Shown here: in pieces, positions 293 through 3,867 of the stretch | Layout of the letters: each line of letters starts with the position of its first letter | How positions within the stretch are numbered: the first letter of the stretch is position 1 | Source of the DNA: a bacterium | GTDB lineage: Bacteria > Patescibacteriota > Minisyncoccia > Phycocordibacterales > UBA2100 | Direction of reading: 5' to 3' | Assembly: GCA_016789445.1 (NCBI GenBank) | Contig: JAEUQT010000003.1 | Span: forward strand, 82,600-146,599 | DNA: 64,000 nt | The notes under the pieces: model-generated | The model's input: the letters and a program-made list of their open reading frames with translations, nothing else | Database searches by the model: none | What the model was told of the DNA's origin: nothing | Translations under genes and position numbers: made by a program

Positions 293-487
293 TTAGTGCC
301 GCCGCACGGCGTGAGCATCGAACGCTTCGATCTGTGACGGCGACATCGCCATCAGCATACCGAGCCTGAATTTCGCTTGTTCGTAGAGCGGGGTGTTCGC
401 TTTGACGAGCGCCTTCTCCTCTTCGGTGAGGCGATCGAATGCGGTGCGAACTGCGATGTCATGCGTGGTTGCCATTACGGCCTCCAT
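293..487 (-). CDS. hypothetical small protein (64 aa)
   Basis: ORF-track ORF; no recognisable motif; lies just outside the left boundary of the IS-like unit. Confidence 0.3.
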   Translation of the reverse strand: MEAVMATTHDIAVRTAFDRLTEEEKALVKANTPLYEQAKFRLGMLMAMSPSQIEAFDAHAVRRH

Positions 488-564
488 TCACTGGATCCCT
501 GCCCTCAGTGGACATTAGGATAATTATACACCATTTCGGCGTATTTTGTCAATATCCTAGACGA

Positions 565-587
565 GGGAACTATATACCTATCTACCC
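565..587. repeat. left terminal inverted repeat of the IS-like unit, with 8-bp direct repeat ctagacga at 557-564
   Basis: Read from the sequence; reverse-complement match to 2585-2607. Confidence 0.5.
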
Positions 588-598
588 TAGACGATAAA

Positions 599-778
599 TT
601 ACTTACGTTCCTGCGTCCATTTATTGCCAAATTCGTCGTAGCCCTCTTTTGGCTTACTAAGCTTATCTATCTTCTCTTCCAGATCGTCTATCCGGTCAGA
701 AAGGCTGCCGAGCGCAGCGCGGTGCGCTAAGAAACCGATAAAAGCGACAATTGCAAAAATCCACAGTAGCCACTGCAT
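599..778 (-). CDS. small membrane/coiled-coil protein (59 aa), MQWLLWIFAIVAFIGF...DDLEEKIDKL
   Basis: Hand-translated, below the ORF-track cutoff. N-terminal TM helix then charged helix. Its start lies 1 nt after the stop of the upstream 44-aa ORF; the only purine-rich stretch upstream (aaggtaag) is within that ORF's 3' end. Confidence 0.35.
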   Translation of the reverse strand: MQWLLWIFAIVAFIGFLAHRAALGSLSDRIDDLEEKIDKLSKPKEGYDEFGNKWTQERK

Positions 779-779
779 A

Positions 780-914
780 TCATTTCTTCTTACCTTTTAA
801 TTGCTTCTTGCTCTTATAGCCTGACTTGGCGAGTGCGCCAAGCACCTCATCGAATGAGGCGGGAATGGGTTTATGGATTTTGGGCTTGCGGCCGCGTGTT
901 TCTTTCTTGCTCAT
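780..914 (-). CDS. small Lys-rich protein (44 aa), MSKKETRGRKPKIHKP...KGKKK, translationally coupled to the transposase
   Basis: Its ATG overlaps the transposase TGA stop (ATGA, 911-914). Hand-translated; not in the ORF track. Confidence 0.35.
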   Translation of the reverse strand: MSKKETRGRKPKIHKPIPASFDEVLGALAKSGYKSKKQLKGKKK

Positions 915-1795
915 GCCGTGAGTTTCCTCAAAGGCATTTTACCACTTTTGGCGATACGTCGTGTCGTATCCTCGAATATCGTCTGCATAGGGCTGGTGCG
1001 GTGGTTGAACCGGAACGCCACCTCATCGACGTATCGCTGGAGGTGCTTCTTGCTCATCGAATGATAGGTACCGTGATAGTTACGCTTGAAAAGCGCCCAG
1101 AATGACTCGATAGAGTTGGTGCTGACGGTGCCGCGTACCCAGTGCTTCTTCCCGTGCTTGATATATCCCCACTGATAGCCGAGCTTCGGCAGCTTCGAGT
1201 ACACGCGAGCCTCGTCGGACATAATCTTCGTCTTAGGATGGATGTGCTTGCGGATTGTCGGCAAAAGGGTTTCTGTCCCACGATCGGGAACGGCAACAAC
1301 GCGGATACGGCCACCGCGCTCTGTCATGCCCATAAGCACCTGCTTCTTGCGGAAGCCGTCTTTGCGCTTGTGCTTGCCTCCGAGGTACGTTTCGTCCACC
1401 TCGACAACGCCAAGGAGTTTAGCCTTGGACTGCTTAAAAGACGCGCGGATACGCATATCCATGAACCATGCCGTCTTCTGCGTAACGCCGACATGTGAGG
1501 CGAGTTCGATGCTGGAGATGCCCTTCTTGCGGGTTGTGAGGAGGTAGATGGCGATGAACCATGAACGCATCGGGATTTTGCTCTCTCCGAAGAGCGTACC
1601 GGTCTTGATGGTGAAGTCCTTACGACACTTGTGGCAGCGGTAGCGGATGCCATCGGAGAAGCGCATGATTTGGTTGTGCTTGCAGTGCGGGCAGTAGTCG
1701 CCCTTGGCAAAGCGCATACGTTCAAAGTAGGCGCGGCACGCCGCCTCGTCGGGGAAAGCTGCCATGAACTGGGCGAGGGTCTTAAAGTTATTCAT
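911..1795 (-). CDS. IS1595-family transposase (N-terminal zinc ribbon plus ISXO2-like DDE domain)
   Basis: N-terminal Cys pairs (CPHC...CHKC) and an ISXO2-like DDE core (~294 aa). Confidence 0.9.
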   Translation of the reverse strand: MNNFKTLAQFMAAFPDEAACRAYFERMRFAKGDYCPHCKHNQIMRFSDGIRYRCHKCRKDFTIKTGTLFGESKIPMRSWFIAIYLLTTRKKGISSIELASHVGVTQKTAWFMDMRIRASFKQSKAKLLGVVEVDETYLGGKHKRKDGFRKKQVLMGMTERGGRIRVVAVPDRGTETLLPTIRKHIHPKTKIMSDEARVYSKLPKLGYQWGYIKHGKKHWVRGTVSTNSIESFWALFKRNYHGTYHSMSKKHLQRYVDEVAFRFNHRTSPMQTIFEDTTRRIAKSGKMPLRKLTA

Positions 1796-2299
1796 AGCCC
1801 CATCCTATACTCCCGCTTTAGGGTTGTCAAGTGCTGGAAATAAATATCGCTTCTGCCTGTGGATAAACCCCCTCTATACAAGCGAAAGAGCCTTGCTACG
1901 ATATTGGTAGACAGCTGCGGAGCGGCTTGGTCGCCTACCTCCGTTGTCATAGCTTGCACCGAAACAGACAACCTGTTTCTTACTCTCGGCACAGGATCCA
2001 AAAGACCATGCGCCGATAAGGCGTAACCACCGAAAGGTGCAAGCGCCTGCGCCGGGAGTAAGGGATAGGTTTTTTGAATATCGGAAAAGCGAATACCCCC
2101 GAAGTGGGGGCATTAGCGTAGTTGGTCTGGATTGCCTCTCCTAAAAACGGATAGGGCGGGACGACATGAATCCCGGTACAGAACCTATTATTGCGACTTT
2201 AGGCCTAAAGTCTTCGAAAACAAGTACTTGTACGGCTGACACGTTTTATAGTGCCTCCCCCTCGCGGGCTTCCGCGATCACCTTCAAAAGGTGATACAT

Positions 2300-2384
2300 G
2301 CGTCCGTGGCGAAACTAGGTAAACGCAGTGGATTTGTAATCCACCATCCCCTCGGATTTGCGGGTTCAAGTCCCGTCGGACGCA
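2300..2384 (+). tRNA. class II tRNA (long variable arm, 3-bp D-stem, A73 discriminator); anticodon loop ttTGTaa reads UGU
   Basis: Manual cloverleaf: acceptor gcgtccg/cggacgc, D-stem gcg/cgc with GG in the loop, anticodon stem gtgga/tccac, variable arm atcc-cctc-ggat, T-stem gcggg/cccgt with T-loop ttcaagt. No encoded CCA. Confidence 0.7.
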
Positions 2385-2584
2385 AATATCAACTCTCAAA
2401 GACCATAAACAACAGCCAGTTATCTGACTGTCGCGCACGACTGCTAGTAATTGAACGATCCCGCGGTTCCCCCTTTCAAATCGTTTCCGATTACCACCAT
2501 TGTAGACGAAGGTGGTACATGCGGTAAATAGAGTTATCCACGCGGATTCGGACTATACAACAATCTTCATGCGATTGGAATTAA

Positions 2585-2607
2585 GGGTAGCTATCTATAT
2601 AGTTCCC
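2585..2607. repeat. right terminal inverted repeat of the IS-like unit, with 8-bp direct repeat ctagacga at 2608-2615
   Basis: Read from the sequence; the direct repeat includes the uvrC stop codon. Confidence 0.5.
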
Positions 2608-3867
2608 CTAGACGATGCTGGTCGCTTGTCGTCGCTTACGATGCCACGTAATCGCGAAACGATGCGCCTCAGAATTGGCGAGAAGGATGTCACGTTCAAA
2701 CGATTGTATGGCATTGAGATTGCCGATGAGACGTTCCGGACGATGGCGTTCGTTCTTTACGACACCCACCAGCGGAATGGTGATACCCGCTTTGGAGAGC
2801 ACTTTCTTGGCGGCATTCATCTGTGCCGTCGAGCCATCGACGACGATGACGCGCGGATACTGCCATTCAGGATGAAGTAATCGGCGCGACAAGACTTCAG
2901 TCAGAGCTCCCGGATCGTTGTTGGTGAATCCCTTCACTTTGAATTTGCGATAGGCGCTTTTGAGCGGTTCCCCTTCTTCGACGGCGACCATGACGCCGAC
3001 CGTTTCGGTGCCGGAGGTGTGGGCGACGTCGAATGCTTCGATACGTGCGCCGCGTTGCGGGATGTTGCCGCCGCTGGAGATGCGGGAATCATCCTTGATG
3101 AGCGCGATGTCGTTGATGTGGGTCAGCGCGCCGACCTGACGGCGTGCGCGTTCGGCATCTTCGAATCGTTCTTCTTTGGCAGCCACTTTCATTTCCTTCT
3201 CGAGCTCCTTCACGAGCGTTTTCTTCTTGCCGCTGAAAAGAAGGCAGATGTTGCGGATAGTGATTGCGTATTCCTGCGCATCGGTTTCTCCGGTGCAGAC
3301 GCCAGGGCACAGCCCTATTTGCCTGTTAAAACAGGGACGGCAATTGGCTTTGCCGGACTTGAGTTGTTCCGAGCATGGGGTGCACTTGTCATCGCGATAC
3401 GGGAAGATGCGACGCACGAGCTTCATCGCTTCGCGCAGCGCGAGGCCTTGCGGAAACGGGCCGAAAAGCTGCTTCACCTTCCCTCCCTGCCAGTTGGTGA
3501 AGTATTCACGACCACGCACGACGAGCAGGCGCGGGAATGCTTCTTCGGTCACCACGAGGTAGTTGAAGCTGCGGTTGTTCTTGTCGATGATGTTGTAGGG
3601 CGGCGTGTGCTTCTTGATGAGATTCGCTTCGAGGATCATCGCTTCGAGTACGGAATCCGCTTCTTCCCACGTGATGGTGTCGGCTTCCTGCACCATGGCC
3701 GCGATGGCGGTGGAACGCGATTCCTGAAGGCCGGCATTGAAATAGCTGCGCACGCGGTCGCGCAGCACCGTTGCCTTGCCGATATACAAAATCTTCCCGC
3801 CCTTCTGGAAGCGGTAGATGCCCGGTGTTTCCGGAAGGTCGAATTTTTGGAGGTCATCTTTCTGCAT
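2608..3867 (-). CDS. uvrC: excinuclease ABC subunit C (UvrC), short form of 419 aa that lacks the C-terminal (HhH)2 region
   Basis: N-terminal GIY-YIG (PGIYRF...ILYIGKA), UvrBC-interaction region, RNase H-like endonuclease domain. Confidence 0.9.
   Translation of the reverse strand: MQKDDLQKFDLPETPGIYRFQKGGKILYIGKATVLRDRVRSYFNAGLQESRSTAIAAMVQEADTITWEEADSVLEAMILEANLIKKHTPPYNIIDKNNRSFNYLVVTEEAFPRLLVVRGREYFTNWQGGKVKQLFGPFPQGLALREAMKLVRRIFPYRDDKCTPCSEQLKSGKANCRPCFNRQIGLCPGVCTGETDAQEYAITIRNICLLFSGKKKTLVKELEKEMKVAAKEERFEDAERARRQVGALTHINDIALIKDDSRISSGGNIPQRGARIEAFDVAHTSGTETVGVMVAVEEGEPLKSAYRKFKVKGFTNNDPGALTEVLSRRLLHPEWQYPRVIVVDGSTAQMNAAKKVLSKAGITIPLVGVVKNERHRPERLIGNLNAIQSFERDILLANSEAHRFAITWHRKRRQATSIV

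Follow-up and report, generated by a model that had tools for sequence, protein, structure and literature searches.

An IS1595-family insertion sequence of Patescibacteria with a class II tRNA gene, anticodon UGU, as cargo

Insertion sequences (ISs) are usually seen as carrying the genes for their own transposition only, and sometimes protein-coding passengers. Can an IS also carry a tRNA gene from site to site, and what would such a tRNA be charged with? The question is raised by a locus downstream of uvrC in a bacterium of the patescibacterial lineage UBA2100, contained in a stretch of 64,000 nucleotides that we call the window (assembly GCA_016789445.1, contig JAEUQT010000003.1, positions 82,600 to 146,599). 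A first-pass annotation of the window, made from the sequence alone, had proposed that an IS1595-family element of 2,043 bp was inserted just after the uvrC stop codon, and that it contained, besides a transposase gene, two small open reading frames (ORFs), hairpin-rich non-coding sequence and a tRNA gene. Each feature named in that proposal (repeats, octamers, transposase, ORFs, tRNA and uvrC stop codon) was found again where it had been placed. The contigs or loci of relatives compared with the window are designated by L-numbers (L001, L249 and so on). Exact-sequence look-ups of the window transposase and UvrC returned nothing, and the relatives were taken from homology searches.

The inverted repeats that bound the proposed element, at 565-587 (GGGAACTATATACCTATCTACCC) and 2585-2607, are identical at 20 of 23 positions, and a repeat search lengthened the pair to 24 nt with 88% identity (565-588 and 2584-2607). 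When up to three mismatches were allowed, the 23-mer was found at two sites only within the 64-kb window; two hits were obtained in none of 100 shuffled sequences. The octamer CTAGACGA abuts the outer side of both repeats (557-564 and 2608-2615), a match that was upheld on re-search. A third copy, which brings the window total to three, lies at 587-594, inside the left repeat, and the number of copies is not significant by itself, since at least three were present in 23 of 100 shuffles. These two observations speak for the view that the repeats and octamers occur by chance, with the tRNA and the small ORFs as residents beside an ordinary 1-kb IS. That view, to which we attach a negligible probability, was refuted by two relatives in which the whole 2,043 bp, tRNA included, is lacking, and the unit of repeat, tRNA and transposase recurs at some 20 other sites with other duplications.

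The two relatives, on contigs L249 and L265, have an empty site (...ACCAGTATCGTCTAGGATATTGACA...) with a single octamer, no element and no tRNA. In L249, uvrC (419 aa) is followed by ...ACCAGTATCGTCTAGGATATTGACAAAATACGCC... in a spacer of 69 bp that separates it from a gene for a 64-aa protein. The spacer contains one copy of TCGTCTAG, the reverse complement of the octamer, and a perfect TTGACA-18-TATAAT promoter comes directly after it. The 64-aa protein encoded to the left of the element in the window (293-487, minus strand) has an identical sequence on L249, and L265 has the same empty site and a UvrC that is 99% identical to that of the window. No tRNA was found in 8 kb of the empty-site loci, L249 and L250 both being tRNA-free. 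The first-pass annotation had named the presence of this tRNA next to uvrC in relatives that have no repeats as evidence against its proposal; the opposite was found. Because the sites in L249 and L265 are empty and hold a single octamer, the 2,043 bp arrived as one event that duplicated 8 bp, and window 565-2607 is a single IS1595-family insertion.

The internal octamer appears to be mostly subterminal element sequence, helped by chance, because the repeat consensus of the family contains CCCTAG and the closest relative, L001, carries TGTTCTAG at this place, matching at 6 of 8 positions. A nested or two-step insertion, suggested by the third copy, was dropped on the same grounds. The insertion is recent and probably still active: neither the transposase nor the ends are damaged, the two copies of the duplication agree fully, and a near-identical strain has the site empty.

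Both host genes (uvrC with its stop codon, and the 64-aa gene) and the host promoter were left intact by the insertion. The uvrC stop codon (TAG, minus strand, 2608-2610) falls within the right octamer. The promoter of the 64-aa gene (window 523-552, minus strand) agrees with the sigma-70 consensus at 12 of 12 positions (TTGACA-18-TATAAT), lies 5 bp from the insertion point and is kept in the empty sites.

Recurrence of the terminal repeat, which the first-pass annotation had suggested as a check, was found on dozens of other contigs, where related elements are bounded by GGGAAyTATATA......TACCC(TAG) and have 8-bp duplications of their own. Those with transposases at least 56% identical to that of the window come from Patescibacteria or from unassigned metagenome contigs, one of which (L169) is filed as viral in IMG/VR, and they range in length from 2,043 to about 3,450 bp. 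A perfect 8-bp duplication was present in 18 of 19 complete elements, different in each and mostly AT-rich; examples are CTAAAAAA (L001), AAAAAAAG (L002), GTTTCAAA (L004), TTCTTGGA (L006), ATTCGCTT (L008), CAATCAGC (L009), AATTAAAA (L020), CCTTAATT (L027), AAAAATTT (L087), CTTTTTTC (L089), GAGATAAC (L091), CTAAAAAC (L251) and CCATTTTG (L258). The sole complete element without a matching duplication, L014 2701-5052, is flanked by TATAAATAG on one side and ATGAAAAT on the other, possibly because two copies have recombined. Transposases P0010 and P0080 each occur on several contigs and were not accepted as independent insertions, the site being the same in different samples.

Between the repeats of 21 distinct elements there is a long-variable-arm tRNA of 82-89 nt. 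Besides the window element these are 19 on Patescibacteria contigs and one on an IMG/VR contig, all 20 at unrelated sites. The anticodon is UGU in 20 of the 21 and UGA in one (L015). At 21 sites the tRNA is enclosed in a unit framed by duplications, and the empty sites lack it; it is therefore true cargo of a transporter IS and moves with the element; the movement of a tRNA by a mobile element, which had seemed unusual in the window, is borne out by the 20 further cases. In L001 the layout is as in the window and the context is unrelated, with sortase and peptidase neighbours. Three placements of the tRNA occur. It adjoins one repeat and runs opposite to the transposase in the window, L001, L008, L009, L011, L013, L014, L020, L027, L089, L091, L251 and L258; it comes just before the transposase gene, in the same orientation, in L002, L004, L006, L007, L086, L087 and L092; and it lies downstream of the transposase in L015 and L169. 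Comparison of the window element with L001 gave 93% identity for the transposase arm, about 73-80% for the tRNA arm and 60% for the tRNA, and such different identities of the two arms indicate that the elements are mosaics.

The clade that is defined by the transposase, a 44-aa AT-hook-like protein and the GGGAAyTATATA...TACCC ends is almost entirely patescibacterial. In more distant relatives, from Verrucomicrobia, Bacteroidota and other groups and with transposases less than 56% identical, terminus and 8-bp duplication are still present, but no such tRNA was found. No close relative was present in viral contigs, where the best match, L169, has a transposase of 56% identity and carries the cargo tRNA; BLAST searches with the tRNA in E. 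coli genomes, and with the complete element in phage records, were negative.

Three loci with other tRNA arrangements were also seen. In L012 (3696-3769) the place of the class II tRNA is taken by a tRNA-like gene of class I, 74 nt long, whose anticodon is UGU; this gene has two mismatches in the anticodon stem and is missed by a covariance model built from the cargo tRNAs. On the metagenome contig L141 (686-6958) a distant IS1595 relative is surrounded by 20 tRNA genes within 7 kb; the array looks phage-type, and one of its members is a 77-nt tRNA whose anticodon is UGU and whose D-arm is Leu-like. In the viral contig L227 a normal class I tRNA-Thr(UGU) (1875-1948) was rejected as cargo of a distant relative (90-1861), since it lies 14 nt outside the repeats.

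The tRNA of the window was detected both by ARAGORN and by Rfam (RF00005; 57.9 bits against a gathering score of 29), and is the sole tRNA in the window. It is a complete gene, as the first-pass annotation had it, and it is not an ordinary tRNA-Thr: it belongs to class II and is tRNA-Leu-like, with a threonine anticodon. The variable region of the cargo tRNAs is a stem-loop of about 13-20 nt and the Levitt pair is A15-U48, unlike class I tRNA-Thr, which has a short loop and G15-C48; the anticodon, UGU, is not one of those of leucine (NAG or NAA). The anticodon loop has the sequence (C/U)-U-U-G-U-A-A, with U34, G35, U36, A37 and A38 in 20 of 21 elements, and judged by this sequence it is that of an ACA reader. 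With an acceptor stem of 7 bp and a T stem of 5 bp the geometry is canonical, and the cargo tRNAs are therefore not allo-tRNAs.

An alignment of 17 cargo tRNAs had 96.8% of its cells paired, compared with 71.5% in shuffles, and no slid register of the alignment approached the observed pairing. Compensatory changes on both sides were found in 20 of 24 pairs, including three of the four pairs of the variable arm, a result reached by none of 500 shuffles. Co-variation extends to the tertiary structure: in L001, L004 and L014 the D-loop GGU is changed to AGC together with a change of the T-loop UUC to UGC (alignment columns 19-21 and 68-70), so that the tertiary pair G18:U55 becomes A18:G55. Positions U8, A14, A15, G19, A20a, U48, U54, C56, A58 and A73 are invariant in the 17 sequences, and G18 is kept in 14 of them. 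The pairing and the co-changes show that the structure of the cargo tRNA is under selection. Between the window and L001 the tRNAs are only 60% identical though the transposases are 98% identical, and the structure is kept.

We favour, with moderate confidence, the reading that the element is a transporter IS of the IS1595 family whose selected class II tRNA is charged with threonine and decodes ACA. This reading is favoured because the elements' own ACA codons sit at invariant threonine positions. Among 19 transposase genes, ACA was found on conserved threonine columns in 14 of 16 informative cases, and in the window transposase it encodes the invariant T87 and T174. The codon is not avoided: it makes up about 30% of threonine codons in element genes compared with 12% in the host genes of the window, and a fraction of 0.30 in element genes compared with 0.22 in host flanks (p = 0.04). 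The identity of bacterial tRNAs for threonyl-tRNA synthetase (ThrRS) lies in the anticodon and the acceptor pairs (review, PMC9976931), and the window tRNA has the ThrRS-type G1-C72, C2-G71, G35 and U36. Charging with threonine, or at least an absence of harmful leucine insertion, is what we favour.

At the locus itself, a DDE transposase made a cut with a stagger of 8 bp in the 69-bp spacer between uvrC and the 64-aa gene and inserted the 2,043-bp unit, duplicating TCGTCTAG. On the favoured reading, the tRNA would be transcribed opposite to the transposase strand, from the conserved hairpin-rich region upstream of it, and matured by the host. It would read ACA and possibly all ACN codons, and host ThrRS would, as our best guess, charge it with threonine through G35-U36. 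The element would in this manner bring extra or replacement ACA decoding into a reduced genome with few tRNA genes, and the added decoding might make the insertion useful or hard to lose.

Several observations weigh against a threonine-charged decoder. GTA and CTA are enriched in element genes as well as ACA. The body of the tRNA is a tRNA-Leu scaffold: the leucine identity elements of E. coli are reported to be A73, A15-U48, G18G19, A20a and the tertiary pairs between D- and T-loops, the anticodon and the variable arm being irrelevant (PMC9976931), and every one of them is present in the window copy. When other tRNAs were scored with the covariance model of the cargo tRNAs, the best non-cargo hits were genuine tRNA-Leu (79.3, 67.7, 62.5, 59.7 and 53.6 bits), above Ser (46 bits) and Tyr and class I Thr(UGU) (40 bits), and the highest of them exceeds one cargo tRNA. 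The acceptor determinants of ThrRS vary across the family: G1-C72 is present in 15 and C2-G71 in 13 of the 17 cargo tRNAs, and A1-U72, C1-G72 and G2-C71 variants occur. In L015 (1804-1888, downstream of the transposase) the class II tRNA has the anticodon UGA, for a Ser codon, on an intact cloverleaf of 85.5 bits, which would fit an anticodon-blind synthetase better. Nematode nev-tRNAs of like design, derived from tRNA-Leu and with Gly or Ile anticodons, are charged in vitro with leucine alone (PMC3333845). Lastly, in the window copy leader and trailer (2276-2299 and 2385-2408) no longer pair with each other as they do in most elements (-4.6 kcal/mol, z = 0), and a local hairpin at 2277-2295 is found instead.

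Since the body keeps every known bacterial identity element for leucyl-tRNA synthetase (LeuRS), the tRNA is likely to receive leucine to some extent, unless the LeuRS of the host selects against it. The rival explanation that follows is that the element is the same, and that LeuRS ignores the anticodon and charges the tRNA with leucine, which is inserted where ACA specifies threonine. Low-level Thr-to-Leu mistranslation, tolerated, regulated or stress-adaptive, would then travel with the element, as a transposon-borne bacterial counterpart of the nev-tRNAs. The invariant or nearly invariant set A73, A15-U48, G18G19, A20a and U54:A58, the affinity to genuine tRNA-Leu, the nev-tRNA precedent, the varying first two acceptor pairs and the L015 variant all agree with it. 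We nevertheless regard it as rather unlikely, because efficient leucine insertion would damage the transposases, which use ACA freely and also at invariant threonines, and because UGU is kept in 20 of 21 elements though LeuRS would allow any anticodon, so that a specific benefit of misreading ACA would be needed; nor did nev-tRNAs give detectable mistranslation in vivo (PMC4300185). A proposition that spans both kinds of charging, that the IS family spreads a chimeric tRNA with leucine identity and threonine anticodon, either as a missense tRNA that writes leucine at ACA or as a replacement of the host ACA decoder, is possible and is put forward tentatively. A phage-like need of the element for the tRNA in its own codon usage is unsupported, because the enrichment of ACA is shared with GTA and CTA and appears compositional.

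The threonine-charged decoder has also to be set against roles other than bulk decoding, and these are suggested by the surroundings of the tRNA. In most elements a leader of 24 nt pairs with a trailer of 24 nt (consensus AGGAAGTCAG-tRNA-CTTGACCTTCT), and the polarity of the pair relative to the tRNA is constant whatever the position or orientation of the tRNA. Since this helix accompanies the tRNA with constant polarity, the tRNA behaves as a cassette of about 130 bp. The mean duplex energy is -17.6 kcal/mol, compared with -7.8 for 43 other tRNAs in the same loci. The helix is 15-20 bp long, and one G-U and one A-C position are conserved in it. In seven relatives a DUF5343 protein of 240-258 aa is encoded directly upstream of the tRNA and co-oriented with it, and matches the PADLOC phage-defence candidate PDC-M34A (E 4e-15 to 2.5e-16).

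A tRNA with such a helix and such a neighbour, diverging fast in sequence with its structure kept, might belong to an addiction or immunity module: being nuclease-resistant, it could stand in for the host tRNA-Thr(UGU), or act as its decoy, when a toxin or defence system attacks tRNAs. Some phages are known to carry tRNAs that make up for host tRNAs lost to cleavage. The cargo tRNA could also be a processing signal for RNase P, RNase Z or RNase III that shapes the transcripts of the element. We consider either role improbable. The window element and L001 carry the tRNA without DUF5343, of which no remnant was detectable in the non-coding sequence of the window element; no toxin was identified; and a processing signal has no need of a strictly conserved anticodon, A37 or a full tertiary set. 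The non-coding stretches 1796-2298 and 2386-2584 were searched for a decayed DUF5343 gene or other passenger with a profile of six DUF5343 proteins on six-frame translations and by tblastn with other passengers, and gave no signal.

The same absence of the DUF5343 partner bears on the possibility that the window tRNA is an inert hitchhiker, decaying from functional ancestors and no longer expressed or needed. The lost leader-trailer pairing points in this direction, L001 having kept both that pairing and the local hairpin as options, and no sigma-70-like promoter was found on the plus strand upstream of the tRNA with the E. coli consensus, which may miss promoters of Patescibacteria. A hitchhiker is very improbable, however, in view of the perfect cloverleaf of the window tRNA, whose score of 90.1 bits with the cargo model is among the highest of the family, the retention of all invariant positions, and the recent date of an insertion whose site is empty in a strain with a 99% identical UvrC.

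The features of the element are collected in Table 1, together with the DUF5343 genes of its relatives.

Table 1. Features of the 2,043-bp element (window coordinates) and DUF5343 genes of related elements (element coordinates for L008 to L027)
Feature	Coordinates	Strand	Remarks
Target-site duplication, left copy, CTAGACGA	557..564		Single copy in the L249 and L265 empty sites
Terminal inverted repeat, tRNA-distal end, downstream of the small ORFs (GGGAACTATATACCTATCTACCCT)	565..588		Common to all family members
Internal third CTAGACGA, subterminal, not a duplication	587..594		Consensus CCCTAG; L001 TGTTCTAG
59-aa ORF	599..778	-	Hydrophobic N-terminal helix, charged tail; no Pfam family
44-aa basic protein, AT-hook-like, core gene	780..914	-	ATGA overlap with transposase; kept in 14 elements
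IS1595-family DDE transposase, 294 aa, intact	911..1795	-	Pfam; invariant D134/D194/E230/K237
Promoter-like TTGACA-17-TAGGAT for transposase	1802..1830	-	Conservation to ~1844; presumed function
Lineage-specific non-coding stretch, long imperfect hairpin (arms 1965-1995, 2046-2076)	1833..2084		No counterpart elsewhere
Conserved four-hairpin region upstream of tRNA	2085..2299	+	~70-75% identical to L001
Class II tRNA, anticodon UGU, A73, no encoded CCA	2300..2384	+	ARAGORN, Rfam; 90.1 bits with cargo model
Conserved tRNA trailer (AATATCAACTCTCAAAGA...)	2385..2415	+	Pairs with leader in relatives; inverted pair 2282-2306 / 2377-2401
Variable spacer, trailer to repeat	2416..2583		Weakly conserved with L001 except last ~50 nt
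Terminal inverted repeat, tRNA end (reverse complement GGGAACTATATAGATAGCTACCCT)	2584..2607		Identical in L001, L002
Target-site duplication, right copy, holds uvrC stop	2608..2615		Stop 2608-2610, minus strand
DUF5343 gene, L008	294-1070	-	
DUF5343 gene, L009	691-1425	-	
DUF5343 gene, L011	457-1224	-	
DUF5343 gene, L013	322-1059	-	
DUF5343 gene, L014	348-1097	-	
DUF5343 gene, L027	316-1038	-	
DUF5343 gene, L251	2568-3317		

The transposase matches the Pfam family DDE_Tnp_IS1595 (PF12762; 2.4e-42, 145 bits against a cut-off of 27), with Zn_ribbon_IS1595 (PF12760; 6.4e-10) at its N-terminus, and is 98% identical to that of L001. D134, D194, E230 and K237 are invariant in an alignment of 31 transposases; by analogy, D134, D194 and E230 would form the acidic triad, with K237 seven residues further on. 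The small ORFs are coupled as the first-pass annotation had described, the 44-aa ORF overlapping the transposase stop by 4 nt (ATGA) and the 59-aa ORF starting 1 nt past the stop of the former. Their description as cargo did not hold for the 44-aa ORF, which comes after the transposase gene in 14 elements, directly so in nearly all, and which by this conservation is a core partner of the transposase. Its product has the invariant residues G8, R9, H14, P16, F21, V24 and L25 and an AT-hook-like motif RGR(K/P), and may bind the AT-rich ends of the element. The slot of the 59-aa ORF is occupied in relatives by small peptides of variable sequence, mostly hydrophobic; no Pfam family matched the 59-aa ORF or these counterparts, and a variable membrane peptide is predicted.

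About 500 bp of hairpin-rich non-coding sequence had also been described. The hairpins were confirmed: on either strand the predicted fold of 1796-2298 is stronger than that of shuffled sequence (z = -3.7 and -4.9), and four hairpins are common to L001 (2096-2110, 2195-2212, 2263-2276 and 2277-2295), with stems kept and loops different, the stem at 2195-2212 having two compensatory changes. As a structured RNA the region as a whole fared less well, since an Rfam search of the window element and of L001, with the threshold set permissively, gave the tRNA only, and only the 215 nt next to the tRNA (2085-2299) are shared with L001. In the hairpin that immediately precedes the tRNA, the loop (2283-2289) is TTCAAAA in the window and TTTTGAGG in L001 (alignment columns 225-232); the stems are identical and the loop looks flipped. 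The GC hairpin at 2096-2110, followed on the minus strand by a T-rich run, could stop read-through from uvrC before the transposase gene. No counterpart of 1833-2084, with its long hairpin, was found in any other locus or elsewhere in the window, and L001 holds about 770 nt of unrelated sequence in its place. The promoter-like TTGACA-17-TAGGAT (1830-1802, minus strand) is conserved upstream of the transposase in relatives.

Two observations concern uvrC itself. The window UvrC (2608-3867, minus strand) has 419 aa and is without the C-terminal helix-hairpin-helix domain. The host belongs to the Patescibacteria (Paceibacteria/Minisyncoccia) and is close to Kaiserbacteria. As all Paceibacteria homologues are equally long, about 410-420 aa without this domain being the normal length, the short UvrC is characteristic of the lineage, and the element did not truncate it. 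A locally raised divergence of uvrC between the window and L265 adjoins the insertion site: the last 51 nt or so (window 2608-2660, L265 1757-1808) contain about 10 differences, mostly synonymous, despite the 99% identity of the proteins.

A whole clade of ISs thus moves a selected tRNA gene between sites and genomes, and does so in reduced genomes with few tRNA genes. The cargo tRNA genes are currently labelled as plain tRNA-Thr in annotation. A leucine-type body with a threonine anticodon makes them a natural test case for the competition of ThrRS and LeuRS over one substrate, and raises the question whether mobile elements alter or buttress the genetic code of their hosts; if the host ACA decoder were replaced, a transposon would be an indispensable part of the translation apparatus. 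Our searches of the searchable full-text literature turned up neither this element nor any other IS1595 element described from Patescibacteria, no IS with a tRNA as passenger and no class II tRNA with a threonine anticodon.

The element resembles other members of the IS1595 family in its DDE_Tnp_IS1595 domain with N-terminal zinc ribbon, its short inverted repeats and its 8-bp duplication, and differs from them in the second core ORF (44 aa, AT-hook-like) that is coupled to the transposase, and in being almost confined to Patescibacteria. Its termini, GGGAAyTATATA, resemble what we take to be the ISNwi1-type end (GGnnatTAT) of ISfinder and TnPedia, which makes that subgroup a candidate. Like the transporter ISs of the family it has extra genes inside its repeats and is larger than the basic IS of about 1 kb; unlike them its regular passenger is a tRNA gene and not a protein gene.

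The cargo tRNA has its nearest likeness in the nev-tRNAs (PMC3333845, PMC4300185), which also have a long variable arm, descent from tRNA-Leu, a foreign anticodon, conservation within a clade and retained leucine identity elements. They are chromosomal eukaryotic genes with anticodons for rare codons (CCC, UAU), whereas the cargo tRNA is bacterial, lies on a transposon and has UGU, for a codon that the element often uses; since ThrRS depends strongly on the anticodon, cognate charging with threonine is plausible here, unlike in the nev-tRNAs. The allo-tRNAs (PMC5389517) are similar as non-standard bacterial tRNAs with an anticodon mismatched to the body, at mobile or addiction-type loci. They have an 8/4 or 9/3 geometry of acceptor and T stems (a 12-bp branch) and serine identity, in contrast to the 7/5 geometry and Leu-like body of the cargo tRNA, and their association with transposons or toxin-antitoxin systems was anecdotal in that study, which described no repeat-bounded unit with duplications. 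Phages, plasmids and integrative elements likewise bring tRNAs of their own to a host, but as large replicons or integrase-driven islands, many of which use tRNA genes as attachment sites, whereas the present element is a 2-kb DDE IS with a single tRNA as internal cargo, inserted at AT-rich sites unrelated to tRNA genes. The vehicle is thus familiar; the cargo, and the consistency with which the clade carries it, are not.

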